Of a stretch of 64,000 nucleotides of DNA, positions 615 through 64,000 are shown piece by piece. Source of the DNA: an uncultured virus (IMG/VR IMGVR_UViG_3300028564_000002) (Duplodnaviria > Heunggongvirae > Uroviricota > Caudoviricetes); the IMG/VR virus record IMGVR_UViG_3300028564_000002. One strand, given 5' to 3'. The position numbers and the translations under genes were made by a program. The notes beneath the pieces were generated by a model that ran no database searches, had not been told where the DNA came from, and saw nothing but the letters and a program-made list of their open reading frames with translations. How positions within the stretch are numbered: the first letter of the stretch is position 1; every line of letters starts with the position of its first letter.

Positions 615-1820
615 ATGCCAATGAGATTTAAACTTGACTTTACTCTTAAAACCTCCCAAGAAAGACTCAGCTACTTAAAGGAAAATGTTGATTTCGATTA
701 GCTAACCAAGAAAGACATTGAAACTTGTACGGACTATGTGTTGTATGGTAAGGACCCAGATAAGGACGATACCTCTATGGTAGACCGCAAAGAAATCTAT
801 ATCAAAACCCGTTACAACTCATATAATAAAACAGAACCCGTTTCTTTGGAAGGACTAATGGAAAATCCCGCATTTGACGAATCAATGTTGACGTAGGACA
901 GACACATTTACAAGAAAACCAAACCAACTATTGACAGAGAAAAATGTAAGGACATACCCGGTATGTAGGAGTTATGGGACGCCATAGATAAGCTTGACCA
1001 CCTGTTAAAGCTTGCTAAGGGTGAAGTGGAACCGCAGGAAGGCGAGTCAGTGCCCAACTACGATTCCAAGCAACTATACCATTTAAACCACCACCTAATT
1101 GCGCTAAGGAAACAGCAATATATGTTGAAAGACAGCGCATTCCCTGAGTTCATGGCGGCGAAGAATTACGGCTCATTTTACGAATCGCCCACTATGGCGG
1201 AGATGAACTATCCAGTGTTCCCTTGTGGGACTATGAGGTCTGAGAATGACCCTGACTTCATGAACCCAACTATTTCGCAGCGAGAACTGGTGACTAATGT
1301 GGAGGAGAAGATAGAGGAATTGAAGAAGGCGAACAAGCCTTACTTGAACTTTATGGATAAGAGCCACATTTATTAGCTGTGCCTGAACTATTATCAGATA
1401 AAGGATTAGGCTGAGAAGAACCCTGATTCGCCCCTAAACAACCTATTGTGGACGCTGGACTTTTACATTGAGAAGGCTAACCTGAGCGAACAATAGAGGC
1501 TGATTGTGGCGGCGAAGAAGGAAGGCCTATTGAATAAGGAGATATGTGATTTGTTGATGGAAAAGATGGGGATTTACCATCAAGAGAACTATATATCGAC
1601 TATATGGAATAAGGTATGTGGCTTAATCGCTGCCGCCGCCGACCTTAATTATGATGAATGGTGCTGTAAGGACTATAAGGCTGCTTGGAAGAAATGTAAT
1701 TGTTGTGGAAGATTGATGCTGAGAGACCCACGTAATTTCGTGAGAAAGGCTAAGGCATTGGATGGGTTGACTAACAGATGCAAGAAGTGTGATTAGAAGA
1801 AGAGAAGAGGTGAGATATAA
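615..1820 (+). CDS. Hypothetical protein with C-terminal HTH-like region and CxxC..CxxC zinc finger (401 aa, TAG read-through)
   Basis: ORF fragments 1026..1376 and 1506..1796 share a frame with ATG 615, are separated only by TAG, and end at TAA 1818-1820. The C-terminus contains KKCNCCG...RCKKCD. Confidence 0.7.
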
Positions 1821-2132
1821 GTGACGAGTATGGAAGCGAAACTAATGGAGTGTTTGACTGGATTTGATATGATGGACCTGATGGGGTTTGCGAGAATGTT
1901 GAAAGTTGATGGAGAGTGCGTGAAGAAAGCTCTCTGCTCCGCCGCCATGGCTCCTGAGAATCTGGTTGATAGGCAGGAATGGGAAGACTTTATTTGCTCT
2001 ATTGTTGAACAGTTTGAAAAGTGTAATAGAAAGCAAAAGAGAGAATTGTTAAAAATGGCGAAATAGATTGTGAAAGAAAATAAGGATGAAAAAAGTGGAG
2101 TAAGTGAAGAGGACATTCCACCTCAGGAATAA
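1821..2132 (+). CDS. Hypothetical protein (TAG read-through)
   Basis: GAGGTG RBS before GTG 1821; frame continues past TAG 2064-2066 to TAA 2130-2132. Confidence 0.65.
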
Positions 2133-2145
2133 GAGGTGATGAAAA

Positions 2146-3069
2146 ATGGCAATGAAAAAGTGCCTGTTGTGCAAAGAAGATAAAAGCACAGCGAATTATA
2201 TAGGATTACGTTCAGAACTATTGAACGGCTCAATGCCGATTTGTAGAAGTTGCATAGCTCGACTTTTAGGCGGCAAATCAGATGAATAGAGATGGAATAT
2301 GGCGAATAAGCTTTGTTAGCTTGCTGACGTTCCATTCGTTCCAGAAGTTTTCGAGAAGACCTATTAGGCTCATGGAACTGATGCTTTTGGAACTTATTGC
2401 TATATGTTTAGAGAGAAACCTTATGATACTCTTGACTGGACGGAATATAATAATGCTTATTTGATATTATAGGATGAACAGCGTGTTGAAGATGGACTCC
2501 CTGAAATAAAGGCAAGCAGAATTAATAAATTGCATAAGAGATGGGGACAAGAATATGATGAACAACAGCTTGAATATTTGGAGAATTTGTATAGTGGTAT
2601 TACACAAACTACTGGTATTGTTGGCGCTTTGAATGAAGACCAAGTATTGAAGTTGTGTAAGATTTCTCTGATTATTGAAGACAAGATAAGAAGCGGCATG
2701 GAGTTTGATAAGGATTTGAAGGCTTATGATAACTTGTGCAAACTTGCTGGTGTTACTACTCAGGCTATCAAGGAAGGTAGTGAGTTTAACTCTACTGGCG
2801 AGGTATTTGCTTATCTTGAGAAATTGGGCTATAAGATTAACTACTATGACGGTGCAGTAAATGATGAAGTTGACAAGACTATGAAGGATATACAGTATTG
2901 GTCAAGATATCTTTATATTAATGAAACTGCTATCGGGGAAGAAATTAAGGAACGTATTGAGAACTTGAAGACAGCAGATAAGATTACTAACTCTGGTTTC
3001 GACTGGGGCGAATATGAATCATTTGCTGACGATGTTGACGAGAACGAAGAGTTCAATATTGAAATTTGA
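2146..3069 (+). CDS. Zn-finger protein directly upstream of terminase; candidate small terminase or packaging factor (307 aa)
   Basis: ATG 2146 with GAGGTG RBS; N-terminal KKCLLC...PICRSC; joins ORF 2530..3069 through TAGs. The function is inferred from position only. Confidence 0.6.
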
Positions 3070-3080
3070 GGCGATGCGGC

Positions 3081-6000
3081 ATGACTATGAATATATTGTT
3101 GCCGTAGTAGATGATTAATGCTACTACTCAAATTTTAACTAAGGGTGAAGTTTTCTATCGTAATGGTATTGCCTTAGAGAAAGGCGCCGTAATAAGTGAG
3201 AAGAGAATATAGAAGAAGTAGAGACTGTATGAGCAGTATGCGGACTTGTTCTCTTCTTACCCCGACCTTTATTTGGAATTGATTAAACCAGTGGGGTCAA
3301 AATTTAAGTTGAAGTTCTTCCAAGTAATGTTTATCAGAGCGTGTCTACGCTACGGACGTGTGTTAACAATCGCACCGCGTGCCGCCGGTAAGTCGTTTAT
3401 ATGCATCTTGGCGCTGTATCTGATTTGTATATTCAGACCGGGAAGTCACGTTAATACTAGATAGCGCTGTCGTATTGTGAAGTGCGACAGATAAGATTGG
3501 TTAAAAGCTGGGAAATCCAAGAATTTAATATTACTACAAAGCACGAAATCCTGTGCTTGAATGTTGCGAAAGCAGAAATAAATATATTAAATCGACCTAT
3601 GGTTAAATCCTAAGGGTTTCTAATGGACAATCAGCACTAAAGGAGGAAAAGTAATGACTGAAAAAGAATTAAGAGATAGGATTTATAAGAAATTTGGTGA
3701 CATCAATTATGATATTATTACCTTTAGGGTAATGAGAGAACCTGCTGACTTTAAATGTTTGGATTGTGGAAATGTTGTTCACATGGAGCATTTACAGAAT
3801 TTGTTCAGAAAAACAAAAAGTGAGTTTTGTCCTTTCTGTGCTAACACTTATAAAGGAAACAAAATCGGAAAGAAGTTACCTTTAGAAGAAGCACAGAACA
3901 GATTAAAAGAAGCCTTTGATACTGAATACGAGATTATTCCTGATAAGTATTAGGGATGGTCACGAAAGGCGTTAATTAGACATACTTTATGCGGCAAGAT
4001 ATTCTCTGCTCAACCAAGAGATTTACTATATCACAGCCACTGTCCATGCTATACAATCAACTCAAAAGGAGAGTTAAAAATTAAAGAAGTATTGGATAAA
4101 TACGGCATAAAGTATGAACAGCAAAAACGTTTAGAAAACATCAAGAAAGCTCCATATGACTTCTATCTACCAGACTTCAATTTACTAATTGAATTTCAAG
4201 GTAGACAACACTATGAGTCAGTGAAAGTCTTTGGTGGAGAAAAACAATTTGCTAATCAGCAGGAAATTGATAAAAGAAAAAAGCAAATAGCTCATGAAGC
4301 AGGTATTGAGCTACTTGAAATCTCTTACTTAGAAAAGTCATTAATTGAAGAAATTTTAGTTCAACGACTATCCTTGACAGGAGTAGAGCCAAGTGGCTCG
4401 AAATGCCAATCGCCTCAAAATGAGGATTGATTTAGTCTGGTCTTATGCGAGAGTATAAGAAGGGTCTGCGTAACGAACAGACTCGCAACATTACGATTCT
4501 AGTGCGCCCCTGGTAAGGCTCAGGGTGCTAAAATTGCGAACCAGAAGATACATTAGCTTTGGGACTTCTTCCCGCTACTTCAAGACGAGATTATTGGTAA
4601 CGGTAATTTTGGTAATGACTATGTTTAGTTAATAGACATACATTTTGGTAACAAGATGAAAAAATAATGCTTTTAATTGCTGGGAAATCGTAAAGTCACT
4701 CTTGCTAAAGATATTTCCTCAAATATCAATGCGACGAAAGTAGAAATAAAAGAGTGAATGGCATATGGTTAAATCCTAAGTGCCAACAATTGATAATCAG
4801 CAGCCAAGGAGGAATATTATGACATATGAAGATTTTATGATAAAAATAAATAATAAATTTCCAGAAGAAGAATTTGAAGTAATTCAATGGGGAAAGAATT
4901 CTTCTGAGAATAGTATAATAAAGTGTTTAAACTGCAATAGAGAAATTACAGTTAATACTGGAGAGTTATTTAGGAAGAGAAGAACAAAAATTTGTTCTAA
5001 ATGTAATTATATTAGGAAGGATACTCTAAAAAATAGAGAAATAATTAAAGAAAAAATTGGAGACAAGGGATATAATATTGAATTTTATATGGCACAGCAA
5101 AGTAAAAATGGAAACAAAGGAGATAAGGTTCGTTTTACTTGCTCTAAATGCGAACGAGTTAATGAATTTTTTGTTGGTAATTTACTAAAAAATAATTCTT
5201 CTATTGAATGTCAATACTGCTCTGGTCAAAAAAATAAAAAAGACCATATTGCCTATAAATTTGAGTTAAACGAAAAATATCCCAACGCTTTTACTTTATT
5301 GTCTGATTATGAGGACATAGACAAAGAGATAAAAATTCGATGTAATACTTGTGGTTTTATTCGCAAGGTTAAACCTACAAATCTTTTACGTAATGGTTTT
5401 TGTCCCAAATGTGGTAAAAATAAATCGACAGGAGAAGCGAAAATATGCGCTTGGCTTGATGAAAACAATATAAGATATGAACAGCAAAAATATTTCAAAG
5501 ACTGGAATATTGGACTTCATTATTTTGACTTTTATCTTCCTGAGTATAATTTAGTGATTGAATATCAAGGTATTCAGCATTATGAATTTAATCCTTATTT
5601 TCACAAAACAATAGAAAATTTTTCTTATTGTAAGAATAAAGATAATATAAAGAAAAATGCGGCTATTGAAAATGGATTGAATTATTTAAGTATTAAATAC
5701 ACTTTATATCATAAAATTGAAAAAATATTAGATAATATTCTTAAAGGTTCAACGACTATCCCGCAAGGGAGTAGGGGCAAGTGCCTCGAAATGGAGCACT
5801 TCCAGTAGGAAGAAGATATAGTCTGAGCTTAATAGAAATATTAAGAAGGAAGAGTGTAACGAACTCTTTCGTAACAAAACTGAGATTAACTTTTAGAAAT
5901 AAGTCAGTGTTTGACGTTATGACACCACTTAACTCTACTCGTGGTAACCGTGCTACTTGTGGTATTTTGGACGAGTTCCGTGACCACTTGGCTGAGGATA

Positions 6001-7187
6001 TAAATGAGATTATTCTTCCTTTGTTGAACGTTGATAGACCTATGGTTAACGGAGACAAGAATGAGAATGAGCCTCAGCAGGTTCAATTATGGATAACCTC
6101 CGCCGCCGAAAAAGGCACGTTTTGTTATGACAAGACGATAGAGTTACTGGAGCAATAGATTATCAATCCAAAGGAAACATTTGTTTGGGGCTTTGATTAT
6201 CGTATTCCAGTTCTTACTGGACTTCTTTCAAAGGACTACCTTACTGAATTGAAAATGTCTCCAACCTTCAATGAACTTGGTTTTGCTAAGGAGTATATGA
6301 GTAGATTTGTTGGTGGTTCTGCCGACGCTTGGTTTGACTATGAGAAGCTAAGTCGAGCAAGGAAACTTGTCAATCCGGAAACATCCGAGAAAATTAGAGA
6401 TGGTATTGAATCGTTCTACATAATCAGTGTGGATGTAGCGAGACTTGGTTGTTAGACTGTTGCTACTGTCCTCAAAGTATTCCCTAACAACAGTGAGGGA
6501 TATAAGATTAATCTGGTCAATTTATTTGTTCTTGGTAGAACTAATCAAGAAAAGGTGTTTGATAAACAGGTTGTTGAATTAAAGCGACTTATCGCGGCGT
6601 TTAACCCAAGAGAAGTCGTAATAGATATCAACGGTCTTGGTGTTGCCTTTGGTGATGCTATGATTAAAGAAAGCACTGATGAAGAGGGTAATACTTATCC
6701 TGCTTATGGTTTCTTCAATGAGGAAAGTAAGTATATTGATATTCAGCCAAGAAATGCTATTAAGATATTATATGGTATTAAGGCTAACGGACAAATAAAC
6801 AGTGAAATGCACTCTGCATTATATGCAAAGATTTATTCAGGACACATGAAACTTTTGATTTCTGAACAGCACGCACGTAGTAAACTACTTGCTACTCGTA
6901 AGGGATAGAGAATGAGTCCAGAGGCACAGAACGCACGTTTAATGCCACATATTTTAACTTCAAGTTTGGTTAATGAGATTATGAATTTGAAGGTAAAGCT
7001 TACTGGTGTTAACAATCAGATTGCTGTTGAACAGATTAATAACAGAACATTGAAGGATAAATTCTCTGCACTTGAAATGGGAGTTTATCGTGTTGTTCAA
7101 ATTGAAAATAAAGAGCTGGCTCGCCGCCGTAATCGTGGCTTGAAGAGACAGCTTACATTCTGTACCAGAGGAGGTGGAAGAAGGTGA
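3081..7187 (+). CDS. terL: Terminase large subunit, spliced from exons 3081-3451, 4496-4625 and 5883-7187 (601 aa)
   Basis: Walker A-like IAPRAAGKS, Walker B GILDEF, motif WITSA, nuclease motifs ISVDVAR and IDINGLG, C-terminal KDKFSALEM. Exons join in frame as PGSHV/FQCAPGK and GNDYV/RLTFRNKS; several internal TAGs. Confidence 0.92.
3452..4495 (+). ncRNA. Group I intron 1 of terL
   Basis: The exon ends in U and the intron ends in G. Core elements: AAGCTGGGAAA (P), AATCAGCA (Q), TCAACGACTA (R), GATTTAGTCTG (S). The 5' ACTAGA can pair with exon 2 TCTAGT (P10). Removal restores the reading frame. Confidence 0.88.
3654..4430 (+). CDS. Intron-encoded homing endonuclease: zinc-ribbon repeats plus Vsr-like/DUF559-type PD-(D/E)XK domain (258 aa)
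   Basis: ORFs 3654..3953 and 4092..4430 are joined by a TAG; CxxC motifs; SKGE...PYDFYLPDFNLLIEFQGRQHY; AGGAGG RBS. Confidence 0.85.
4626..5882 (+). ncRNA. Group I intron 2 of terL
   Basis: P1: exon TATGTT pairs with GACATA giving a U-G pair at the splice site. P10: AGTTAAT pairs with exon 3 ATTAACT. Core: AATTGCTGGGAA, AATCAGCAG, TCAACGACTA, AAGATATAGTCTG. Terminal G at 5882. Confidence 0.92.
4819..5826 (+). CDS. Intron-encoded homing endonuclease: three zinc-ribbon units plus Vsr-like nuclease domain (335 aa)
   Basis: ATG 4819 after AGGAGG; repeated CxxC; STGEAKI...YFDFYLPEYNLVIEYQGIQHY; reads through TAG 5806-5808 to TGA 5824-5826. Confidence 0.85.
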
Positions 7188-8767
7188 GTGAGATAAAGGA
7201 AGTGACACCAGAAATGCTGAAAGCTCAACGTGTTGAAACTTTTAAGAAAGGTATTGAGAGCATGATTGCTAAGAGCCGTGCCGCCTTGGTAAAGTCGAAT
7301 AATCGTGAGCCAAGCGTGAATAGATTCAGAAGAGACTATTCAAAGGCAGAGATTCATCGTATTATCACAGAAGGAACTGCCGTAGAAAAGTCTATGTTGT
7401 CTGAATATTTCTTTTCAGTAAGTGGTGTTTACAAGCGTATTATTCTTCACTATGCTACCTTTCTTACCTATTCTTGGCTTCTCGTTCCTCATATGAATAA
7501 ATATGAAGATAAACTTAAAGAAAAGAAAAACAAGAAGATATATTTCGATGCCGCAAATTTCTGTTCAAATTTCGGCATCGAGAGAAAATGTGCTTGGTTT
7601 GCTAAGAATGTTCTTGTTGATGGCGGATTCTATGGAATTATCCATGATAGTGGAACAAGTATAGCAATTCAGGACTTACCATTCTCTTATTGTCGTAGCC
7701 GCTTTAAGAATCATTAGGATATTGATGTTGTTGAATTTGATATGCGTTTTTTTGACACAATTCGTGAAGAGGACTTACGTAAGCAAATTCTCAAAACCTA
7801 TCCGAAGATTGTTCAAAAGGGATATAATAAGTGGCACAGCGGCAAGACAGATGACCCTTGGATTTTCTTGCCAGTTGAGCTTGGTATTTATTTCACTTTG
7901 TTTGACGAGAGTCCATTCTTTCTTGATTTAATTCCTCTTATCGATGATTTAGAGGATTACAAGATGATTGATAAGCAAAGAAAATAGTTAGCATTAAAAC
8001 GTATTATTACACAAGAAATTCCACATGATGGTATGTAGCTTGTATTTGAACCAGACGAAGCTGCTGATATGCATGACGGTGTTCTGGAAATGTTAGCCGA
8101 TAACCCCGATGCCGATGTTATCACATCCTACGGTAAGGTTAACCTATTGGATTTGAGCGGAGATGGACAGCAAAATACTGACGTTACCGAAGCTCAACAA
8201 TTAATTTATGATTCTGCGGGCGTATCAAAGGAACTGTTCAGCGCCACATCCGATGCAGGCCTTCAATTCTCATTGAATAATGACCTTGCTATGATGATGG
8301 TTCTTGGCGAAGGATTTGCACACTTTTTTACTGCTTTGTTAAATAATAAATTTGGCAACCGTAAGTTGTCATTCAGAGTATTGATTCTTCCAATAAGCTA
8401 TTACAACAGTTATGAGTATACTTCAAAAGCTAAGGATTTAGCAGCATTTGGTTATAGCTTCTTGACTCCTGTTCTTTCAACAGGTATCGACCAGACAAGC
8501 CTTGCTGACCTTAAATCATTAGAAAATGATGTACTTGATTTGGATGAATACCTTAAGCCGCTCCAGTCAGCGTATACTCAGTCTGGAAAGACCAATGCTA
8601 TTACTGCTGAAGCAGGCAAAGCACCTGCTCAAAACCCAAACGATTCTACTACTGCTGAAAAGGATGAAAAGGAAAAAGAGAAAAAAGAATCCACATCCAA
8701 AGATGAAAGCAAAGCGAAGAAAAGCGACGCCGCAGAAAAAAAGAGTGACGGAGGTGAGGATAAATGA
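7184..8767 (+). CDS. Portal protein (527 aa, TAG read-through)
   Basis: Three in-frame ORF fragments joined by TAGs; directly after terL; typical size; SAGVSKELF motif and acidic/charged C-terminal tail. Confidence 0.8.
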
Positions 8768-10317
8768 AGCTTGATGAAAGTATGCTAAAGTTTAATGTTA
8801 CCATTTATGGTGATGTTGAGACTCTTTCTCCCACTCTTTCTAAGAGTAGATTACGAATTTTTTATAGGGGTCTCAATAGGAATCGTACATTTATATCAGA
8901 AGACTTCGCCAGACAATTGATTGAATCTTTACCATACGTGCCAGTTAAGGGTATATTTGATGGAGAGAATCTTGATTATGGCGACCACGGAGAGAAAAAC
9001 TCTGATGGACGTATTTATGGTATAGTTCCTGAGAATCCTAACTTTGCTTGGGAAAAGCACGTAGACGAAGATGGGGTCGAAAGAGAGTATGCTTGTGCGG
9101 ATGTTTATCTCTACACCGCTCTCTATCCAGAAGCAAACCTTATTTCTGGAAAGTCCCAATCAATGGAGATTCATAAGAAAGGACTTGACGGAGAATGGAA
9201 AATTTGGAGCGAGGATGGACAACCTTATTTCGAGTTCCAAAAAGGACATCTGCTAGGTCTTTAGGTGCTTGGCGATGAGGTTGAGCCTTGCTTTGAAGGT
9301 TCCGCTTTCTTTAGTCTGTATAAAGACGCTAAAGAAATGTTTGACTATCTAAAAAATTCTAAGGAAAAGGAGGAGAGCAAGAAAATGGAGAAAAATATCT
9401 TTAAGCTATCAGATAATGATAAGTGCAATCTTATTTTTGATGCGCTTAACACAACAGAAGATAGTTTTAAGTTAATTTGCAATATCTATGATGATTACGC
9501 AATTGCTTACGATACTGCCAATGGCAAGTATCTTCGTGCTTACTACACAAAAGATAATGAAGCAAATACTGTTACAATCGACAGAATTGAAGATTGTTAC
9601 ATTGTAGATGTTTCAGAAAGCGAGCTTAATGCTCTTAATGCTATGAAGGCAGTTGGCACTTATGCTGAGGTTCAGACTAAGCTTGAGGCTCATGAGGCTG
9701 AGATTGCTTCATTTACAGCTGAGAAGGAAAGTCTTAATGAACAGCTTACAAATGCTCTTGCTGAACTTGAAGAGTATAAGAAAGACGATGATGATGACGA
9801 GAAGAACAAGTGCGCTAAGAACGACGACGAGGATGACAAGAAAGACGGCGGCGAAGAAGGCGACGATGAAAAGAAGAAGGACGATGACAAGTCTAAGAAT
9901 TCTCTCGAAGAGACTAATAACGAACTTCAGGCATAGGTTGATTCTTACAAGTCAGAACTTGAAGAAAAAAATGCCGAAATTAGTAGATTAAATCAGTCTC
10001 TCATCGACATAAATAATGAAAAGTCAGAGCTGGAAAACTTTAAGAATACAATCGATACAGAAAAGAAGTCAGCTATTATTGATGAATTTTCTACTTACCT
10101 TAGCGATGAGCAGGTAGCAGAATTTAACAGCAAGATGAATGACTACTCTGTTGAAGATTTCAAAAAGGAAGTTTGCTTTGCTGCTTATAATGCAGATACT
10201 TCTGTTTTCTCAAAGAACAAGGACGAACAGCCCGACTTGATTTACAAGAGTTCAAACAAGGTTACAGAAACCGGTGCTCTTGCACTTTTAATTAAACACA
10301 AAGGAGGTAATAGATAA
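8764..10317 (+). CDS. Prohead protease/scaffold fusion (517 aa)
   Basis: ORFs 8764..9264, 9265..9936 and 10135..10317 share one frame, split by TAGs. N-terminal NRNRTFIS..DHG..QSMEI..LGDEVEPCFEGS protease-like region; C-terminal coiled coil with a D/E/K low-complexity tract. Confidence 0.75.
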
Positions 10318-11033
10318 TGGCATTTGTTAAATTTGACCGCGGTCTTTTCCGCAACGGTAACTCTGCTAAGGGTCTCAGCTATGGCCAGATTGAACCTAAC
10401 CAGGTTTGGTTCGATAGAGCTGGTATGGTTGAAGCACAGTGCAAGCTTGATACAAATGATTTTGCTGACACACAGGTTGCTCCACTCACAGTTAGCGGCA
10501 AGATAGGCGCAGCAACAACAACTAATAAGATTGTAGCTCAGAACGGTGCTTTCCTTCAGGTTGATAAGGCAAGCTATACAGTTTCAATTCCTACAAAGGC
10601 TGGTAAAACAGCAGGAATGCCAGTAGGTATTAACTACTCAACAGAAAAACTTTATGACCAGTTTAATCCTCAGAGAAGAAACTTCTTCCTCACAACAAAC
10701 GATTGGCTTCCAAGAATTGGTTACGTTGAGAGAGGTATGAGAATCACAACTAATGCAGTTCAGTGGGATACAGATTTTGATGAACCAGCAGACTTTTCTG
10801 GCTTTACAACAACTGCTGATTCACTTCAGGTATGGCAGGCAGTTCAGCAAATTATTGCTCAGAAGGGCGTTGTCTACGCAGCAGTTCGTGATGGTTCAGA
10901 TGGTGAGTTCGTAATTGGTGTTACACCTGACGCAACTGAAGATATTATCCTTGCACAGGTTGTAGCAGCATACACAAACGCTGACAGAACTTGCTCATTT
11001 ATGTTCCAGATTCTCGACGGCGGCACTAAGTAA
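10317..11033 (+). CDS. Capsid-associated (decoration/cement-like) protein
   Basis: Intact 238-aa ORF between scaffold and capsid genes, with strongly biased codon usage; the function is inferred from synteny. Confidence 0.6.
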   Translation: MAFVKFDRGLFRNGNSAKGLSYGQIEPNQVWFDRAGMVEAQCKLDTNDFADTQVAPLTVSGKIGAATTTNKIVAQNGAFLQVDKASYTVSIPTKAGKTAGMPVGINYSTEKLYDQFNPQRRNFFLTTNDWLPRIGYVERGMRITTNAVQWDTDFDEPADFSGFTTTADSLQVWQAVQQIIAQKGVVYAAVRDGSDGEFVIGVTPDATEDIILAQVVAAYTNADRTCSFMFQILDGGTK

Positions 11034-11055
11034 TTAAAGGAGAGGTGAGAAAGTA

Positions 11056-12189: not shown

Positions 12190-12202
12190 TAAAAACGATA
12201 AT

Positions 12203-12802: not shown

Positions 12803-12815
12803 TAAGGTGATGTGA

Positions 12816-50606: not shown

Positions 50607-53600
50607 TCAATCCTCACATTGAGCACGTTCTGTTGTGGATTTTGTGATGAATCCTTCATCGTCCATTTCTTCAATTTTCTCAAAGAGTGGGAATGAAGTA
50701 CTCTTATATTTCTTTGGAACAAAATCATCATCACGTCTGATACCAGTTATGATAAGTTTATTACCTCTTGCGAAGAAACTCTTTTCAACAACTGTCTTTG
50801 TTCCATCAGGATTCTTACGTGAAATCTGTCTGTCCCACTTTGCATACTGATTTTTCCAAACCTTTACGTTTACAACCTGCATTGTTGGAGTTAAGAGAAC
50901 TACTGTACTCTTATTCTTATCCTTATCAATTACAGTTCCACAGATTCTTGAAATCTCATACATTCTTATCATGCCGCCTTCCTTAGTAAGGAACTCTGAG
51001 GCAATCACTGGGTCTTTATCCAAATCCTCGAAATCAACAATCTTGTATGCTCTCTTGTTAAGATTAGCAAGCTCATGATTGTGACAATATGTGCCAAGAG
51101 CATCCATATCCCACTTATCAATGCCGCCCTGAGCATACTTTTCAGATACCTCAGTAACAAGTGTAGCATTAAGTTTGTTTAAAATTTCCTGCTGTTTTTC
51201 CTTCATCCATGCTCTTACTGGATTCATTGCTTTATCATATGTATTGTCCCAAGTTGTTTGCTTGATTTTAGCATGGTTGTTTTCACCATCAATTACTGCA
51301 TCTACAAGAACATCTGTGTCATAGTGTTCAAGGAAGAATCTCATGGCATTTCTGTCAAGAAGGTAATAGTCTCCATCCTTGAATTTTCTGATATATTTTG
51401 TGAAGTTATAAACCTTTGCTTCAAATGAGAGTTCCTCTGGAATAAGACCTCTGTTGAATAACATTGTCATATTCTGTAATGTAATTCTCTTTTTCTTGTC
51501 AGCGATGAGGTCGAGATAAGAGTTCATTGTAGCAACTCTGTTCTCATAAAGATTATCAAATGCACCTGCCTTTATCAAGCTGACCATTTGAGTTTTGTTA
51601 ACCTTAACCTTGCTCATAAAGTCTTCAAGAGAACTGTAAGGACGATTCTCAATAATTTCATAAACAAGATTTGTACCAATTCTATCAATACCCTTCAAAC
51701 CATAAATGATAGCGTTCTGCTCAGAGTCAGGCTTAAAGATAAGGTCTGATTTATTGATATCTGGCGGCAAAACATTTATACCAGCTTTCTTGGACTTACC
51801 AAGTGCAACACTTATTTTACCATAGTTAACACTCTTGTTTTTCTTCTTTGTTGGTGTCTCTTCCTCTTCTTCATCGAAGTCTACCTCTCTATCTACATCG
51901 TCTACTTCAAGAAGGTCTGCACCACCCGCGTTTGTAATCAAACAAGCACAGTTCCAATAAATATCGGAATATGTTGTTGCAAGATAAAGAGTCTGAAGAC
52001 CAACAAATGAATAAGCAAGTGCGTGAGGTTTCGCACTGTACCACTACTACTTTCATAGTCCGCTAAAGCGTTGTGGTCTGGACTATACCATACATTTCAA
52101 AACGAAATGGAGTTATTATAGTCTCTGAACGTCTCTCCAATTTAAATGTGTAATTTTATTAGAGAAAATACATAAAATTGAGATTTCGCTGCGTTTGATT
52201 ATCCAATCCTTAACGATGTTACCATACCGTTCCCGTTACTAAACGCCACAATAGAGTTACCTACTATTGCTTGGTTGTTAAGGCTCTAAGGAACTCCCCG
52301 CAATTTAAACTCTTTAAACAGCTCTGCTAAAGTTAAAGCTGTATCCCATCTGAGGCCCCATTGTTGTCTTCCAAACATATTCACCGAATTTCTTTGTAGG
52401 ACAAGCATTTACAAACTTTTCATGAAGAGCCGGAATCTGGTCCATTTTCTTCTTTGCAACTATCTTTCTTGTTGAGTTTGCTTCAGAAAGACTAAAGTGT
52501 GCAATGTTTTCGTCCATACAAATTTCCATCATATCTTCCTGTGATGAAGGAACGCCATAGTTAGGAAGATAATACGGTTCAAGAGTTTTAATCTGTTCTT
52601 CTGTCAATCCCGCATCTTTTGCTTCCATATACCATGCTCTCATATCTTCCTTAAGGCGACAATATCTGTCGAGAGGTCTCTCTTCACCAGGCTCACCCAT
52701 AAGTCTCATTACATACCACTATAGATTTCTCTACCAGCTGGGTAACTGTTTGTGGTCTGGACTATCTTTTACCTTACGGCACACCATTTCGATTTACGTA
52801 TCAATAGTAAACCTACTCTCTGTCTAACCAGAGATAGTCTCTACAGGTTTATTGATTCACCTTTCTTATATTGTTAATTAAATTTGTATAACAATATACT
52901 AAGTGCATTTTATATCACCTCCAATGAGGTGAATCAATATTTCCCACGGGATTACCATACCTATACCTCCCGGCAGTGGCTCCAGGCTTCCCCGTTAGCT
53001 AAGATTAAATCTTAACCCCTTTGATTAAAGGTAAAGTGTGTAAGCGCCAATGTCGACGCATTTGCGTTAAGCATATCAGTTGGGTTCTGCGGCTTAACTT
53101 GTTTTGCAGTTGCAAGACCTACACCAGTACTGAACTGGAATACATCGAGAACTTCACCATTACTAAGTGCATCCCAAAGTCTCTGGTTCTTAATGTCAAG
53201 AACATCAGGATGGAGATATTTATTATATACTTCTCTCAATGAGAGGTCAGGCTCAATCAAATTATCTTTCTGAAGAAGCTGTATTGCAATTGTAAGCTTA
53301 TCACAAATTTCAGTTACAAGAAAGTCATACTTAACGTCACCAAGTTCCTCTGCTTCATGGAGAGAATACTGAGTTGTTAAGTCACCATTCGGGCTTCTCA
53401 TAATTGCACCAGTTTCAAATGGGCTATCATTATAAAGAATAACACCAGATGCGTGCTGGCCTCTTTTATTTACAAGACCATCAATTGATTCGATAATCTC
53501 AAGAAGTCCTGGATACTTGTCAAGCTCATTTACGAGCGCTGTGATAGGTGCTCTACCCTTTTCTTCATTGCCATAAACGGCATCATGAATTGACCAAAGG

Positions 53601-55725
53601 AATCCACGCTCTTGAGGAATAAGAGAACTAAGATACTGTGCTGTATCTGTATCAATTCCATCGGGGAGGTACTCTGAACGATAACCACGACAGGCGGCAG
53701 CGATTGCTGAACGAGTTCCTTCTGTACCATAAGTACAAACCTGAATTACGTTAAGTTCACCACGCTCTTTACGAAGTGCCTCAAAGATTCTCTTTCTCTT
53801 TGAAGGGGTAAGGTCAATATCAATATCCTTTTTATACCCTCGGTTTCCCGATATTTATTAGGGGAATAGACTATCTCTTTAGGACTTTTGTCCATAATAG
53901 GCACTACGGAGTGGTATTCATCTCCACTCCTCTTAGAGATTTTATAATCTCAATTTAGTCGTTACATCTTCTCAATCATTTTCATATTTCCAAAATTTCA
54001 ATAATAAAGTTTTCTTTTCCATATTTCTAAACTGCGCTATAAATTAAAGTCTAATTATGATTACAATGTTCTTGAAAACGAATTTTAATATCACGAGAAG
54101 TAATTCCTATATATTTTTTATTATTAATTAAATTTGTTATGCAATAAACTTTGAAAATATAAATCACCTCCATATTAATATATGAAAATGATTGAGCTTG
54201 ACACGGTATCAACTGCTATCCTTTTCAGGACCGTAGTCTCTCTTACGAAGCTGCTTCGCGCATTGCCTTATTCCACTTCTACCGTTAGCCTTCAATTAAG
54301 AAGACACCGCTGAATGCGTTCACCTATTTTATACTGCCCAATATAAAGTTTAGGCAGTTCCACACGTTCCTCATTCAAGAATCTCCAGTTCTTAAGTCCC
54401 CACTGAAGAGGGTCAAGCTGAGTTATTCCAAGAAGATAGTTTGAAAGGAAACATACTGCCGAACCACGTCCAGGTCCAACAATTGAGCCCTGCTCCCAGA
54501 ACAAGTTAATCATGTGCTGGAAAGTATTAAAATACTCATACAGACAGTTACCAAGTTTCTCTCCAACAACCTTAATTACTCTTGCTTCTGTTTCAAGAGC
54601 AATCATATAATTCTCTTTTCCAAAGAGACCTTTGTCAATCATACTGAGCAAACATTCTGTTACCCAATATTTCTCCTGCACATTATCACTTTGGATAAGT
54701 TCTGTAAGTACTGGACACTTATCTTTCCAAATCCAATCGGGAGTTACTGGACAATCCTTCGGTACCACATTAACTCTTGGAATAATTGGCTTTCTAAATA
54801 TATCATAAGTTCCAATCTTATTATAAATTTCCATTGAGTTATCGCAGAAGTTTTTAAAATCTTCTTCTGTAAAATCAGAATCTTTTAAATACTCAAAAGC
54901 TTCAATATTATCCATCATGTGAGAATAAGTATAGAAATCATCAACCTCTCTTTCACCATCTTTTGAGTTAAGATAAGCTTTATGAACTGGACGCTCTTTT
55001 GAAGTAAGATAATGAGCATCTGAACCAATTACAATTTTAATATTGTAGGCTGCGGCGATACTTACGACTCTTTTATTAAACTTAATCTGGTCTTTTGATG
55101 AGGCTGCGGCGATTTCAATATAGAAATCTTCGCCAAACAAGTTCAAGTTCCAACGAATGAAGTTATCAATTTTCATCTTCCAGTCATAAACGTCAAACTC
55201 ATCGCCTTTCTTTTCAGCCTTAACAAGCTCTGCAACAAAATGAGGAAGTTCGCCACCAAGACAAGCTGTTGTAGCAATTAGAGTGTTTGGATATCTTCTT
55301 ACAATTTCTTCAAGTTCTTTCTTCTCTGTTGGAACACGATATAAACCACGAGAACTGAAGCCATTATACCATGCGGTTGAACTCAACTCTCTTAATGCTC
55401 TATGTCCTTCTGTATTCTTTGCTATGAGAATGTAGTGCCAGTATCTTTCAATATTAGCTCTATCATCAACAAGATAGATTTCGTTACCACAAGCACACTT
55501 GAAATCCTGCGGAATCTTGCCGCTTGCCTTCAAATCCTTTTCGCACTTCAACCATTCAACATGACCAGCAACTGTCTCATGGTCTGTTAGGGCAATACCT
55601 GACATACCAAGTTCATGTGCCTTGAGAATCATATCCTTTGGTCTGTTGATTGAGTCGATAAGATTGAAATTTGAAAACATACTGTGTGAGTGGTTATCAA
55701 ATCTTTTTAAAGTTTTTATATCCAT
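50607..55725 (-). CDS. dnaE: DNA polymerase III alpha subunit, spliced from exons 55725-54352, 53827-53056, 52711-52336 and 52035-50607 (1316 aa)
   Basis: PHP motifs (NHSHS, IALTDHE, SDAHY), GPGRGSA; junctions restore ERVELP/DIDID, NANAL/MRLM and GYSF/AKPHALAYS; also QHASGV, VKYDFL, VLPPDINKS, YGLKGI. Confidence 0.93.
52036..52335 (-). ncRNA. Group I intron 3 of dnaE (no ORF)
   Basis: P1 CAGCTT/GAGCTG with U-G; core AATTGCGGGGA, TCAGAGACTATA, GGTATAGTCCA; terminal G. Confidence 0.88.
52712..53055 (-). ncRNA. Group I intron 2 of dnaE with a 19-codon GIY-YIG vestige (52849-52908)
   Basis: Core GCTAACGGGGAA, AATCCCGTG, GTAGAGACTA, AAGATAGTCCA; terminal G; internal GGAGG followed by MHLVYCYTNLINNI. 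Confidence 0.88.
53828..54351 (-). ncRNA. Group I intron 1 of dnaE with a truncated GIY-YIG remnant (53982-54158)
   Basis: P1 CTGCCT/GGGCAG; core GCTAACGGT, ATACCGTG, GTAACGACTA, GAGATAGTCT; a 17-bp stem (53971-53987 with 54180-54196) encloses FKVYCITNLINNKKYIGIT..RFQEH..KYGKENF. Confidence 0.9.
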
Positions 55726-57380: not shown

Positions 57381-59177
57381 TTAGAAATCATAAAGAGCCG
57401 ACTCCTTTAAATCAATACTATCAATATAAATCTAAGGAGTTGTTCTGCCGCCCCACTTATTGATATTGGCACGACCTGCACAAGTAATATTCAAAGTGTT
57501 GCCGCTGAAGGCATCAATTTGGTCGATAACATCCTAAGCCTTAAATATCATATAAACCATGTCATTAAAGATAAACTTAACCGTATCCTTCTTTGAACCA
57601 ATATACTGAATTGATTTCTTTGGAATGGTTATGTTTTCAACAATAATAACTGGTTCTTTACTATGCTGTCCCCAAAGGTCTGCGTGAGTTCCGAGGTCAG
57701 TTACCAAATTACCAATATCTGAATAGTTACCAGAAACAACAAAGTCTGCTTCATAGTATCCTTCATTGAAGTCAATATCTTTCAGCTCTCTGTTCGCATA
57801 GTCATACAACTTGGAAACGTTATTTTCCTTTAAGCTAAAGCCGGCGGCATTAGCGTGTCCTTCAACCATGTCAGTTAATCCGCTGTCTTTTAAGAATCCT
57901 TTGAAGTCTTTAAGAGCACTTTCCTCTCTACCTCTGATAGAACCCTTTAAGAATCCGTCAGGACTTATTCTACCAAGCAATGTAGGCTTCTTATACTTCG
58001 CCGCGATACCCATAGCGATTAAACCAGTAAGGTTTGTTGATACGTTAAGGTCATCAGCATTAAGGATAAGAATTTTATTTTCATCAAGGCAGTCATTCAT
58101 AATCTGAATATCAAGAAGTTCAATAGCCTTATCCTTTTCTCTATTCTAACGAGAGCGGGCATTTACACAGTTTCTTGTAGCCTATTCAGCTATTGTCTCC
58201 ATTTCACCTTTTGCTCCACGCTTGGTTGAAGCAATTTGAGTATTGCCCTCAATAAATGCTCTGAATAGCATTTCCTTTTCAGACTATGAACCAACACGGA
58301 TAAGAGCGTTGATAAGTGGAGTAACATAGAAGGCAACTTTTATCTGTGTTAATTCGCCATTGGTAAAGTAGCTGTCATTCCAATCTGCTTCATAAAAACC
58401 GAAAAGTGAATAGCATTGTTTCTTAATAATGGCTTTAAATAGCTCATTGCGAATTTTCTTTAAACCGAATACGCAGAAATATCTATTTTCCATTGTATTC
58501 ATATTCATCATATCACTAATTTCACCAAGTGCAACGAGGTCAATATATTCCTCTGCATAACCAGTGCCTTCCATTATATCGAAGAACTGAAGGAATTTAT
58601 AAACCACACCAACGCCGCTTAATGACTTGTTAGGATACCATTGTGAAAGCTGATTGTTAATAACAACTGCACTCTCGCTATACTTATCTGCATCGTGGTG
58701 GTCAAGAACAAGAATATCATATCCAAGATTCTTTAAAAATGTATGTTCTTCATAGTCATTTGAAGAACTATCGGGCAAAATAATTAAATCACAAATCTTA
58801 GCATCATTGAAATCATCCATAACAGAACGAAGTCCATGTTCCTTGCCCTCTGGCACGTGATAAGTAAACTCAACATTTGGATACTTTTCTTTCAAGTGGT
58901 CATTAAAATAATTCATTAGGACGGCGGCAGAAGTAAAACCATCAACGTCGCAGTCAACATAAACTCTTATTTTACTACCATTCTCCAAATGCTTTTTAAA
59001 CAATTGATATCCCTCTTCCATGTGGTCAAGTAATAGCGGGTCGCACATATTATTCTATGCATTGGGATAGAAATACCAATCGCTTTCGCCATCATCTGGC
59101 AATATGTGTCTGTCTTTCAACAGTTCCATTGTGTAGTCAGAATGAATATCATGACTTGTTTTTCTTACATACTTCAC
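57381..59177 (-). CDS. recJ: RecJ-like ssDNA exonuclease (598 aa)
   Basis: YVDCDVDGFTS, LVLDHH, SLSGVGVVYK, LVALGEISDMM, PLINALIR, GSIRG, EGHANAAG; about seven internal TAGs. Confidence 0.9.
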
Positions 59178-59178
59178 T

Positions 59179-60234
59179 TTATAACCATACTCCCTTTGAT
59201 ATTAATTTAGTCGCTACTTCTGGTCCGCAGTCAAAAGGTGACTGCTTTAATTTCAGTAGATTACTATTATCAACTATAAAACCCATTGTGGCATAGTTCT
59301 TATATTTTTCACATATGCCCTTTAATTTAGCATAGTAGGCTTCCTTTTCTTTCCATGTTTCTCCTTCTTTATCAAAGGCAATAAGAATCTTTTCTGCTCC
59401 ACATTGTAATAACAAGTCAAGCTAATATTTATGGAAACTACTACCACAGGCGGCGACAACGATATTCCTATCCTATCCAAACATTGTTGAATATTGTAAG
59501 CAGCTCTTTTCTGATTCTGCTACTATCGCCATTTTATATTTCTTTACATTCTCTCTTACAAAATTCAATCCATATAGATTATAGCCTAAAGGATGGGCAT
59601 ACATTTTACCTTCTAATTTAACGGGCATATACTTGCCATACACCAAATCTTCATCATTTAATGCTCTTCCTCTTATACCGACCAAGTTACCATTCATATC
59701 ATAATGAGGTATGATTATCTTGTTTTCTTGAACTGAATAGAGAATGTTATATATTTTCATTGCTTCTTCACTAATTCCATCCTCCAACCATTCAGGAGTT
59801 GGATAAAATTTATAAGCATTTAACAATCCTTTATTAAGAATTGGCAGCTTAACATCTGCTTCATGATTCTCTGTTGTATAAATTGAGTGATATGGCTGAT
59901 AAAAACTTTCACGAGGTTTACTACCAGCTTTACCACCAATTCTTATTACGATATCTTTAAAAAAGTCATATTGAACATTTAACAGCTCATAACGCTTTTT
60001 AAACATACCAATTATATTAAAAGTACAACCACAATCTGTGTAGCAGTGAAAAGTTTTTGTTCGAGGATAGTAATACAATTTCATACTTGCATCAGACGAA
60101 TCATGATTATGACATATCGTCGGGAAGATAATTGCATTACCAGTTTCCTCAAATCTATCTGCGCTAAGCTGAGTCATTATTTCGATAATTTGTTCATTAC
60201 TTAAGCTGTCTACCAACTCATTTAAATCACTCAT
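59179..60234 (-). CDS. dnaG: DNA primase (351 aa)
   Basis: Zinc-binding TICHN..FHCYTDCG, IIIPHYD..GIRGR, LYGL, TOPRIM AESEKS..IAFD; two TAGs join the fragments. Confidence 0.85.
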
Positions 60235-60245: not shown

Positions 60246-63200
60246 TTACAAAGCACATAATTCTGCAAAACTCTTATTTTCAACACGTCTCTTTATATCA
60301 TCTTTATCATTGAAAGCTGCGGCAGCATCAAGTATAAGTTCTTCTGGCTTAATGTCAGAAACAGAATAAAATTCATCGTAAATTTCATCTGAGACAATGC
60401 CTTCATTATATAAGTCGCACAGGTCTTTAAAAGCCCCATAATTTATGGAGTCAAACTCAACAGCCTGAAATTCCTTTATTGGTTTCATATCTGCGGTAGT
60501 TACAAACAAATCTTCTCTACGGCAACAGCCAAGGTCATTATAACTCCATACTCTTACCATATTCCATCTACCACGACGGTTTTTATAAATGTCTGTAACA
60601 AGATTTGGAACAAAAGAAAACTGAGATTGGAATCCTGCCAGTTCTTGTAATTCTGTCTTGGTTGGACGAGACATTATACAAGCAAAGTCAGCAAGGTTTA
60701 CAATAGCCTTTGAACCTTGAATGTTCTTCTGGTCTCTGAATCCGCCCTTGTCATCATCGTCATTACTTATCTGAGTTGAACTCATAATAAAGGCATTAAG
60801 TTCAACCGCAAGATTCTTCAATGTTGTTGTGAACAATCTAAGACAAACCATATTTTTCTTTTATTTCTAAAAGTATAGACTATATTTCACCATTAGGTAT
60901 AACTCTTTCGGTTCTCAGCCGCATTGTTACCACCGCGGCGGCACGTATCAATAGTGCCCCTACTCTCTCATGATAAGAGATAGTCGTTACAGGTTATTTT
61001 ATTAGCGTAATCGGCTTAATTTTGTAATATTCCTCTTATTACTCTAATAAAATCATCCCTCGGTATTGCCTGCTATCCATTTCTGGACCGTAGGTTCTCT
61101 TAGTCAGCGTATTCGTCTTTAGGATGCAGCGTCATCTCGCTATTTACGCCAGTCTTATTTAGCTGATACCGATAGCCACTTATTTGTGACCCCGCTGATG
61201 AGGCGGAAAAGTTATTTTGAGGACATTTTATCTTAGTTTATCCTCGCGAAGTTTTAAATCACGATATTCATTGAGCATTGCAGGAGAAGAGAAGATGTAG
61301 TCATAGAAGATATTTTCAACACCATACTGAATGTTGTATCTTCTGAACAGATTCTTTACTGCTGACGCACTTGGGTCTGGCATATGAGCGAATAACATAT
61401 TTCCCTCATACTTCTTCATGATATCGATAGCCTGCTGAATACGAGGCATTTCCTTATCACCATAAGTACCGTAAAGGAAAATTTCTTCGTTATAGCCAGT
61501 AAGATAAGCAAGAATCATTGTCTGAATTTCAGCGGGGTCTTGCTCTGTCATTACATAAAGAACTTTTTCACAACTACCAGTTGATACCCATTTATTTTTC
61601 TTTCTATCAAATCGAATTGGATAAGCGATATTACACGCATCACCAACCATAGAACGAGTATTATGTGTACAAATGTAATTATTCATTAAGAATAAATGTT
61701 CATCATTGTCTACATAAAAACAAGTCATATCAACAAATTCTCCGGTTGATTCAATTTTTATAATAGAGTCTCTGTCACGTCTTTCTTCTCTTTTCCCGTT
61801 ATTTGTATAGGCAATTGCGATATCTAATTTTCTTTTTAGTTTAAAAAGTTTTGCTTTTACCGCTTTTGGAGCCTGGATGTGTAGATTATAACATTCTCCA
61901 ATTGTATATTTGTCACTTCTTGTGTCTGTACTATAGTTACAAGTCAATCCGAGACTTTCGCACAGTTCAATAATATTATCTCTTAAAATGGGGCTTATAG
62001 TAGTAAAACCTATTCTGCCCTTTTCATCAATTGAGCCATCGGTATCAAGTAAGCCGGCAAGTAAATCATATCTTTGTTCCACTGAGCCTAATAAAAATTC
62101 TTGTGGTATGTATTTATCTTCTGACTTTAACTGCCATAATTCTGGGTATTCGCTTAATATGTCTTCAGTCCATACATTTTTGTGCTTTTCTTGATTAACC
62201 AATTCAAAGCTCCAATTATAGTTATGGTCAGAGTTCTTCTTATAAGTTGAGTATCCTTGTCTATCACATATTGCTTTAACAAGTTCTTCGTCTGAGCTTG
62301 AGAATGAAAAACTTTTGTTTGATAAATCATATCTAAAGCTTCCATCTCCAAGTATTAAGCCCATAACATAAGGGTCAATCGAATAAGACTTTTCAGGATA
62401 CTTTACTGGTTCTGTTACTGGAATACTCCATCTATAGCGTCCCTTTGTATCATGAAGTCCACGAGGATTGTCGATTATATTTCTTAATGTTGTCGTTATC
62501 AGTTTATTTGGATTTCTGTCATTCTTATTCGAATAGTAACTCCATAAATGCTCATCGCAGCATTCTGCAACTCTACCCGATTTAAAGTACACTTTATAGA
62601 TTTCTTTCTTTTCTTGCTGAGGAAATACTTTCAGTACTTTAGTTGGATTACCAAATCTGTCAAAAAGTAAATCTCCAACTTTAATTTCGCCGACCGATTT
62701 CCATCCATCTGGTGTTGGGATTCTTGTAAAATTTGGTAAGGCTTTACCAACACCAGAACCAGCAGAACGTAAATAAAATTTACCCTTTCTGCCGCCTCGT
62801 GTAATGGCATTTATAATCTTTCCCTAAAGTTGACATCCTATTTCAGGCTTTTCTTTTAGGGATATAATAAGTTGTTCAATACCATCTGTTGCCTTTGATT
62901 CCTCAACAACGCTTTTAAGAACAAACTTACTTTCATAACCGTTGATTTCCATTTTGAGCATATTGAGAATATCCTCAACAGTCATTTGCTCAAAACGTTC
63001 ATTTATCTCAGCATACTTTGGATTGAAAATATCTTCACAATAAATCTCATCCATAGGTCTGCCAGACTTCTGTAAATCTCTTACGAAATTCAGCTTTTTA
63101 AGTTTATGATAGTAATACTTAAAGTTAGCTGGGTCGCCCGCTGTTTCGCAGTCTTGTAAGAATGTTTCGCCATTTTCTTCTTCCAACAGGCTGGCGGCGG

Positions 63201-63423
63201 AAACATTGTTTTTTAAGTAGTTAATAACATCTACACTTCGGATGTTGTTTGCTCCATCGCCACTGTTGTATAGATTGTTAATTGCTGAAAATATGAACTT
63301 ATCAAGTGAAGTAGGAAAATCACTTAATTCAAATCTGTATTTGTCGATATCGTTTAAAAATTCGGGATGATTCATAAGTCCACCAAGGACTTGAATAACC
63401 GTGTGACGGTCAATTTTTATCAC
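60246..63423 (-). CDS. dnaB: Replicative DnaB-like helicase; exons 63423-61240 and 60848-60246; 928-aa precursor, 567 aa after intein removal
   Basis: P-loop SAGSGVGK/T split by the intein; LYVMTEQ, IFYDYI, IMSSTQI, IYKNRRG; the junction KLRED/VCLRLF is restored by splicing. Confidence 0.9.
60849..61239 (-). ncRNA. Group I intron of dnaB (no ORF)
   Basis: P1 GAGGAT/GTCCTC with U-G; core GCTATCGGT, ATACCGAG, GTAACGACTA, AATATAGTCT; terminal G at 60849. Confidence 0.88.
61660..62742 (-). mobile_element. Class 3 intein with LAGLIDADG homing endonuclease (361 aa) in the DnaB P-loop
   Basis: Begins ALPNFTRIPTPDGW (Ala1); block B CCDEHLW; LAGLIDADG blocks MGLILGDGS and LAGLLDTDGS; block F MTCFYV; ends YICTHN followed by Thr+1. 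Confidence 0.92.
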
Positions 63424-64000
63424 TCAGCATCACCTACAATCTGGTCAAGGTCAATCATTTTCTTTTTCTTCTTTGCACCAATATAATCACTTGGATTATA
63501 TTTAATTTCGATACGGTCTTGTTCAAGCTGTTTCTCAATAGCTTGTTCAACTTCAATCCTTTTCTTTTCTTGCTGTCTGTAATAAGACGCCGCCTTGTCA
63601 TAAATATAAGGAATAATTCCTATTGTCTTATACTTATCAGAAACAGGATGCTTTTCTATCTCATAGAAGAATTTTAATGTTAACAGCTGAGACTTGTAGT
63701 TCATTCCCATTTTATTGAATTTTTGCATTTGAGTCACATTCCAATCACTTACTGGCTTATCGCCGTCGGCACCAAATAAACGATAAATATAAAACCATAA
63801 AGCGTCTCTATCATCATTTATTTTTTCCTTCAACTTTAAATTCTCTTCATTCAAATGATTCTTTACAGTAGAAGGGGAGATACCCAATTCTTTTGCTACC
63901 TACGCCATGTTTTTACAAGCCTTGTATTTTTCATTAATTTGAGCTATAAGCTCTTCGTCAATCTTTACCCTCTTTTTAGCTACTACCTCTACGGGCGCAC
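63420..64000 (-). CDS. HTH-containing protein upstream of the helicase; 5' end lies beyond the window
   Basis: ORF 63420..63887 extends through a TAG as NMAQVAKELGISPSTVKNHL (HTH-like) and stays open to the window end. Confidence 0.65.

Follow-up and report, generated by a model that had tools for sequence, protein, structure and literature searches.

The viral record IMGVR_UViG_3300028564_000002 raises the question of how a phage can express genes whose reading frames are repeatedly interrupted by TAG. The window, by which we mean the whole stretch of 64,000 nucleotides analyzed from this record, has a G+C content of 36.9% and corresponds to the left-hand 64 kb of the genome of an uncultured tailed phage, whose full length is expected to be ~150-185 kb. 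Its virion and replication genes form two modules such as those seen in Bacillota phages. A preliminary description of the window had claimed that TAG is recoded to glutamine throughout (genetic code 15), that the genes end in TAA or TGA, and that the decoder, either a tRNA with the anticodon CUA or a release-factor modifier, is probably encoded elsewhere in the genome. In this report, we demonstrate that TAG is a sense codon in the window and that it stands for glutamine. The best joint explanation of the results, which we regard as very probable, is that TAG specifies glutamine in this phage and would be read by a phage-encoded tRNA of the glutamine type with the anticodon CUA, denoted here as tRNA(CUA).

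When the window is read with translation table 11, the stop-to-stop frames of at least 300 amino acids add up to 17,718 nt (13 frames), and the 68 open reading frames (ORFs) of at least 100 amino acids leave the window in fragments. With TAG as a sense codon, the frames of at least 300 amino acids increase to 47,985 nt (22 frames). The same calculation with TGA or TAA as the sense codon gave 20,526 and 19,365 nt, respectively, and thus the gain is specific to TAG. The long frames obtained with TAG as sense tile the plus strand from 615 to 46525 and then the minus strand from 46561 to the end of the window. A list of ORFs that contain neither TAA nor TGA, translated with TAG as glutamine, supplied 41 genes that tile the window. 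These genes span 58,302 of the 64,000 nt (91% of the window) and comprise 19,393 codons, including 144 in-frame TAG codons that are distributed over 32 of the 41 genes. Window-wide, TAG makes up 18.9% of all glutamine-coding codons. The genes end in TAA (25) or TGA (16) and never in TAG, but this count is partly circular since the ORFs were already defined by the absence of TAA and TGA. Two checks that are independent of the gene calls were therefore made.

The proteins of G006, a standard-code relative with a genome of 167 kb, were compared with the raw window using tblastn, and the resulting alignments cross 100 TAG, 4 TAA, and 6 TGA triplets. Among the 37 genes compared, 29 end within a few codons of the end of the G006 orthologue. 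At these 29 ends the window has 16 TAA and 13 TGA, and G006 has 21 TAA, 4 TAG, and 4 TGA. The TAG codons are distributed uniformly along the genes (Kolmogorov-Smirnov test against a uniform distribution, p = 0.32, n = 144), which is unlike the placement of leaky terminators near gene ends. An independent record, G001, is 99.86% identical to the window over positions 1-52143 and retains TAG at 126 of the 131 TAG sites covered; assembly errors are thereby excluded. The role of TAG as a sense codon is confirmed by these results. The window-wide recoding and the TAA/TGA gene ends of the preliminary description are both upheld.

The identity of the encoded residue was addressed with standard-code subjects only, these being 11 loci together with the genome of G006, and identical segments were counted once. 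The subjects reach 95 of the 144 TAG columns and provide 314 aligned cells. Glutamine occupies 132 of the 314 cells (42.0%), compared with 44.5% in genuine CAA/CAG columns of the same alignments. Glutamine is the plurality residue in 35 of the 95 TAG columns (control, 198 of 470). For the TAG columns that are invariant in at least three standard-code subjects, it is the residue in 12 of 18 (control, 59 of 88). The log-likelihoods of the TAG cells, calculated with substitution profiles built from the same alignments as the TAG columns, were determined to be -663 for glutamine, -930 for glutamate, and -981 for lysine. The preliminary description had asked for a Codetta run, and in this Codetta-like test glutamine is the best-fitting residue. 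Residue 178 of the portal protein is encoded by TAG in the window and is glutamine in 13 of 13 standard-code loci, and two TAG codons in the second piece of the putative packaging ATPase fall in columns that are glutamine in 10 of 10 and 13 of 13 standard-code loci, respectively.

A second line of evidence comes from the relatives that share the recoding; among portal relatives in the viral collection, standard-code and TAG-recoded contigs are both present. G009 is a TAG-recoded relative that is ~78% identical in DNA. It covers 77 of the TAG sites, where it has 24 TAG, 22 CAA, 10 CAG, and 21 other codons, so that 56 of the 77 sites are TAG, CAA, or CAG in this relative. The internal paralogues, from which glutamine had originally been read, were also found to be exactly as described. 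The nuclease motif is EFQGRQHY (CAA, CAA) and EYQGIQHY (CAA, CAG) in the two endonucleases that lie in the gap of the ATPase gene, where glutamine is written with CAA/CAG, and it is EY-TAG-GK-TAG-HY at 56910-57254. The tube-like paralogues contain RFQF, PYQF, and RLQF (all CAG) versus RV-TAG-I in 18669-20687, and LQSDG (CAG) and LQADG (CAA) versus I-TAG-L-TAG-AGG in 22702-24885. The first of these paralogues has LEADG where the others have LQSDG or LQADG. Taken together, the comparisons support the reading of TAG as glutamine (NCBI code 15), with genes that are terminated by TAA and TGA alone.

More of the same phage was obtained by extending the right end of the window with exact end-pattern searches, first into L099 and then into G007, for a gain of ~43 kb. 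L099 overlaps the window at 99.92% identity over 1290 nt, and G007 (38.5 kb) overlaps L099 at 100% over 4201 nt. At the other end, G001 reaches 1.5 kb to the left of the window. Together, G001, the window, L099, and G007 sample ~108 kb of this phage population. Of the 31 ORFs in the right-hand extension, 15 contain a total of 58 additional in-frame TAG codons, and none of the 31 has a terminal stop other than TAA or TGA. The topoisomerase II, ligase, and RNase H of G007 are free of TAG, as are its two endolysins (L102:955-1488 and L102:10700-11806); the NrdD pieces have one TAG each, and the giant tail-fibre-like genes next to the endolysins have from 4 to 17 each. No further extension past G007 was found by end patterns, in the metagenome collection, or by a protein search for a contig of the same species. 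The extension thus stops before the region in which the tRNA array should lie.

The window is collinear with the genomes of relatives that are 147-186 kb in length, and the tRNA arrays of these relatives are located 50-90 kb past the point that matches the right end of the window. The nearest complete relative is G010, which is collinear with the lineage of the window and has a RecJ that is 80% identical to that of the window, versus 55% for the RecJ of G003. The recoded genome of G003 has 26 tRNAs, two of which have the anticodon CUA; the recoded genome of G010 has 46 Rfam tRNA matches, again with two CUA; and the recoded G011 has one CUA tRNA. The standard-code G006 has 18 tRNAs and none with CUA. 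All five of the CUA tRNAs from G003, G010, and G011 possess the U1-A72 pair and A73. The U1-A72 pair marks glutamine identity for bacterial charging enzymes. In these genomes it is found in 11 of 11 tRNA-Gln, 0 of 9 tRNA-Glu, 1 of 8 tRNA-Lys, 0 of 4 tRNA-Trp, and 0 of 4 tRNA-Tyr. The suppressor tRNA of G011 is 85% identical to a tRNA-Gln(CUG) of G010.

We propose that TAG would be decoded in the phage of the window by a phage-encoded, glutamine-type tRNA(CUA). The synteny with G010 would place the gene for this tRNA at ~150 kb in the coordinates of the window, within the right-hand third of the genome that is unsampled. Charging of the tRNA would depend on the glutamine pathway of the host, and the tRNA, once accumulated, would out-compete release factor 1 of the host. 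Genes free of TAG could then be translated at once, and genes with TAG could be translated only once tRNA(CUA) is present. However, TAG is found in the genes for RecJ (6), primase (2), and RuvC (3), and thus the split between early and late genes is not clean. The absence of a CUA tRNA from the window, as previously noted, agrees with a tRNA scan that finds no tRNA gene at all. The placement of the decoder elsewhere in the genome of the phage of the window is plausible; the closest complete relative, G010, has two tRNA(CUA) genes.

It is possible to accept TAG as glutamine and yet assign its decoding to the host, to a co-resident element, or to an unrecognized factor, in a lineage without a suppressor tRNA of its own. 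Several results speak for this alternative and weigh against the proposal above. There is no tRNA of any kind in the ~108 kb of the phage population of the window. A further 28 kb is provided by G009, the closest distinct relative, and contains just two tRNAs, neither of them with the anticodon CUA. G002 (8 tRNAs) and G004 (2 tRNAs) are recoded and are rated complete, but no tRNA(CUA) was detected in either by ARAGORN or Rfam, and thus a phage-borne suppressor is not universal in the family. Other decoding genes are not in evidence either: the release-factor domain PF00472 was found in 0 of 10 related records, and the Glu/Gln-tRNA synthetase domain PF00749 in 0 of 5. On the other side, about one-third of the expected genome is unsampled, and it is in the corresponding part of their genomes that G010, G011, and G003 have their tRNA arrays, with two tRNA(CUA) genes in the nearest complete relative. 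We know of no bacterium that reads TAG as glutamine, which also counts against dependence on the host. On balance, a lineage without its own suppressor tRNA seems improbable to us.

The tRNAs of these genomes have further features. The two tRNAs of G004 are a tRNA-Gln(UUG) and one with a 6-nt anticodon loop. Three of the G002 tRNAs are called as Lys(UUU), and position 33 is C in one of these. A tRNA with the anticodon CAA is present in G009 (L181:13956-14420), G010 (L191), and G011 (L193). In G009, the only one in which the arm was inspected, this tRNA has no long variable arm of the kind found in leucine tRNAs. It adjoins a tRNA-Gly(UCC) in both G009 and G010.

It is hardly credible that TAG is a sense codon for another residue, be it glutamate, leucine, lysine, or pyrrolysine. 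The next most common residues in the TAG columns are indeed lysine (39 of 314 cells) and glutamate (32 of 314), but the same background is seen in the genuine CAA/CAG columns, where the plurality residue is glutamine in 198, lysine in 61, and glutamate in 56 of 470. Glutamine is the best choice by 267 log-likelihood units over glutamate and by 318 over lysine, and leucine is outside the six best residues. Where G009 has a codon other than TAG, 32 of the 53 sites carry CAA or CAG. The "tRNA-Pyl" label that ARAGORN gives to the CUA tRNAs of the relatives is derived from the anticodon alone, and these tRNAs are nearest to tRNA-Gln, with which they share U1-A72. Pyrrolysine decoding, for which TAG should be rare and limited to few genes and a Pyl-specific tRNA and synthetase should be present, was rejected, with no search made for pylS, from the high proportion of TAG among the glutamine-coding codons and from the resemblance of the CUA tRNAs to tRNA-Gln. 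The notion that the TAG codons are damage or error, in a decaying prophage or an assembly artefact whose genes are not fully expressed, has the fragmentation under table 11 as the sole point in its favor and a negligible probability, being refuted by frames that are broken by TAG alone (0 in-frame TAA or TGA in 19,393 codons), by the retention of the sites in G001, by their retention or exchange for glutamine codons in relatives, and by the conservation of the proteins at full length across the TAG sites.

The share of TAG differs strongly among the genes (chi-square 92.4, 40 df, p 5e-6). The genes richest in TAG are the free-standing endonuclease, the first piece of the ATPase, the sigma-like gene, and the two virion genes in 14273-15518 (Table 1). 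The endonuclease has the highest TAG density in the window (Fisher p 0.002, Benjamini-Hochberg 0.087). No TAG is found in the dUTPase, in the first tube paralogue, or in the homologous parts of the polymerase. The first tube paralogue (1023 aa) has 25 glutamine codons, 24 of them CAG. For the polymerase, the homologous parts contain 34 CAA/CAG and 0 TAG, an outcome with a chance of ~0.0008 at the mean TAG rate. Two TAG codons do occur in the polymerase ORF at 52314-52787, both within the first 26 codons and ahead of the start of homology. The polymerase is also free of TAG in G002, G003, G004, and G009, except for a single TAG in G009. The share of TAG per gene is correlated between the window and the separate clade of G002 and G003 (Spearman 0.77, p 5e-7, 31 genes). 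The sigma-like gene, which heads the virion module, ranks with the genes richest in TAG in each of the recoded relatives, where 23 of 29, 10 of 24, and 5 of 20 of its glutamine-coding codons are TAG; the last of these belongs to G004, where TAG is otherwise scarce.

These patterns could mean that the TAG load is a conserved, gene-specific translational timer that acts upstream of late transcription, a reading that we consider rather unlikely. The sigma-like gene and the free-standing endonuclease are rich in TAG, and on this reading the genes for enzymes of replication and nucleotide metabolism, for the major virion proteins, and for the endolysins remain free of TAG. If this reading is true, the late regulator would not be made before the suppressor tRNA accumulates, and suppression would switch on the late program rather than merely being tolerated. 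The choice between CAA and CAG is also uneven. Four virion genes whose products are presumably abundant (10317-12189 and 15530-20687) have 80 CAG versus 2 CAA, and in the remaining 37 genes CAA is slightly more common than CAG. The bias in the virion genes suggests codon selection linked to the level of expression.

Table 1. Genes of the 64-kb window from left to right, with the number of in-frame TAG codons (where a fraction is given, TAG over all glutamine-coding codons)
Feature	Position	Strand	Match	In-frame TAG
Sigma-like regulator (PHROG label only)	615..1820	+	phrog_5767, E 1.6e-24	7/16
Gene of unknown function	1821-2132	+		1
Gene of unknown function	2146-3069	+		4
Split putative packaging ATPase, first piece	3066..3494	+	phrog_15503	5/8
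Endonuclease ORFs between ATPase pieces	3654-4430, 4780-5826	+	phrog_559, phrog_9084	1 each
Split putative packaging ATPase, second piece	5781..7187	+		3
Portal protein	7184..8767	+	phrog_2739, E 4.9e-63	3
Head-module genes	8764..14267	+		few or none; Gln almost only CAG
Head-module genes free of TAG	10317-11033, 13533-14267	+		0
Probable major capsid protein	11056-12189	+		1; all other Gln CAG
Virion gene	14273-14782	+		4/8
Virion gene	14769-15518	+		6/14
Tube-like virion protein, five paralogues	15530..25896	+	phrog_2729	0, 3, 5, 9, 4
Gene of unknown function	25903..27984	+		6
Tape measure protein, 2621 codons	28000..35865	+	phrog_4211, E 1.1e-51	31
Distal tail protein; 2177-aa tail protein; small gene	35965..46525	+	phrog_33, phrog_6211, phrog_1401; Pfam Sipho_tail	3; 17; 3
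RuvC-like resolvase; dUTPase; ClpP-like protease; unknown gene	46561..49908	-		3; 0; 1; 1
DNA polymerase III alpha-like gene, four pieces	50607..55725	-	phrog_405, phrog_12219, phrog_20695	
Free-standing endonuclease, 114 codons	56910..57254	-	phrog_559, E 1.2e-30	6/9
RecJ-like exonuclease; primase	57381..60234	-	phrog_2484, E 4.4e-138; phrog_47	6; 2
DnaB-like helicase pieces with LAGLIDADG intein; HTH gene	60246..63998	-		0, 1; 1

The genes of the window are summarized in Table 1. A PHROGs match at E 1e-5 or better was obtained for 34 of the 41 genes, and Pfam gave matches for just 3 of the 27 proteins searched. There is a phrog_3314 match within the two-gene region of unknown function at 1821..3069, and the virion genes of 14273..15518 match phrog_6123 and phrog_4051. 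The packaging ATPase is a putative assignment made from a P-loop-like motif and from its location before the portal gene. The five consecutive phrog_2729 paralogues have N- and C-terminal ends that are common to all. At the right end, the HTH (helix-turn-helix) gene continues past the window. The sigma label of the first gene found no support from Pfam, NCBIfam, or a PDB sequence search. The AlphaFold model of this protein is mediocre (pLDDT 64.6), and Foldseek returned nothing for it at E 0.001 or better; the best match, to an ECF sigma H, has an E of 0.36 and is not significant. In-frame TAG codons noted in the sigma-like genes of the standard-code loci L012 and L025 are genuine stop codons and were hence rejected.

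Three essential genes of the window are split: those for the ATPase (3066-7187), the polymerase (50607-55725), and the DnaB-like helicase (60246-63423), the last having a LAGLIDADG intein in addition to a separate C-terminal piece. Searches with Rfam gave nothing at the gathering score, at E 0.1 for the whole window, or at E 1 for 51900-54350, and the searches therefore do not confirm group I introns in the gaps between the pieces. Between the polymerase pieces, a stretch of ~55-60 nt at ~53817-53877 is 90-94% identical to stretches in 210 phage records. These are from Staphylococcus, Listeria, Enterococcus, and Bacillus phages, and the stretch frequently lies within, or next to, a terminase or polymerase gene that is split. 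One possible identity for it is a conserved core element of introns.

A tree of the portal protein places the window together with L001-L003 and L004 in a separate recoded clade with full support. A second recoded clade has standard-code clades as its neighbors. The tree can be explained with no more than two changes of code, and a single change may suffice. With regard to the host, the protein at L181:2612-3484 of G009 begins with what resembles a signal peptide and has at its C-terminus a repeat that resembles a dockerin. This repeat hints at a host among the cellulolytic Clostridia.

The biology of phages that read TAG as glutamine is already established, and the finding reported here adds a lineage and not a principle. 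There are practical consequences for annotation. Table 11 yields its 68 ORFs in place of ~41 genes and breaks the tape measure gene at 31 places, and catalogues that annotate the phage of the window with this table will misdescribe it. The family, whose genomes are collinear and 50-80% identical in protein, is also suited to the study of how a change of code originates. Its members range from standard-code through lightly recoded to heavily recoded genomes, and the recoded members include those with and those without a visible suppressor tRNA.

Among published systems, the closest match to a GenBank phage for the portal protein is to Phass-1, with 27.7% identity over 85% of the query. As described by Babkin et al. 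(2023, PMC10607447), phAss-1 is a large gut phage of 136 kb in which 41 of the 147 ORFs contain TAG and which has three tRNA-SUP(CUA) genes. The same report describes no synthetase of the phage's own, puts forward Clostridia as a guess for the host, and gives 82.7% and 86.4% nucleotide identity with phAss-1 for the other two members of the proposed genus Phassvirus, a genus marked by high nucleotide identity and common synteny. Given a portal identity of just 27.7%, the phage of the window does not belong to the genus of phAss-1, and Phass-1 is not among the megablast matches listed for the window; membership in Phassvirus was rejected on these two results. Unlike phAss-1, the phage of the window and its relatives constitute a group of their own with genomes of 147-186 kb.

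Gut phages that use code 15 have been described from the crAss-like, Lak, and "gemstone" clades (Borges et al., bioRxiv 10.1101/2021.08.26.457843), and metaproteomic proof of the recoding of TAG to glutamine is available for crAss-like phages (Peters et al. 2022, PMC9523058). Suppressor tRNAs and standard-code sister lineages have already been reported for the recoded gut phages (Borges et al., 10.1101/2021.08.26.457843), and in the code 15 clades as published, the suppressor tRNA(CUA) is common but not universal. The lineage of the phage of the window differs from the code 15 phages treated in the text of Borges et al. That text stresses recoded lysis genes, whereas both endolysins of G007 are free of TAG, and it reports RF2 from Lak (six genomes) and Agate (two genomes), whereas none was found in the 10 related records examined here. 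The most recoded gene of the window encodes an endonuclease, which parallels the group I intron endonuclease of the TGA-recoded Agate phages (Borges et al.). The Agate clade has a mean genome size of 154 +/- 27 kb and contains codes 11, 15, and 4 (Borges et al., 10.1101/2021.08.26.457843). The relatives of the phage of the window resemble the Agate clade in genome size and in their mixture of standard and recoded genomes, and a further resemblance is the presence of endonucleases inside split genes. As in other code 15 phages, TAG occurs in frame in structural genes and in some replication genes and is not used as a terminator, the relatives include phages with a suppressor tRNA(CUA), and close relatives have the standard code. 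The window thus has the features by which code 15 is recognized, namely, many in-frame TAG codons, no gene that ends in TAG, and TAG columns that correspond to glutamine.

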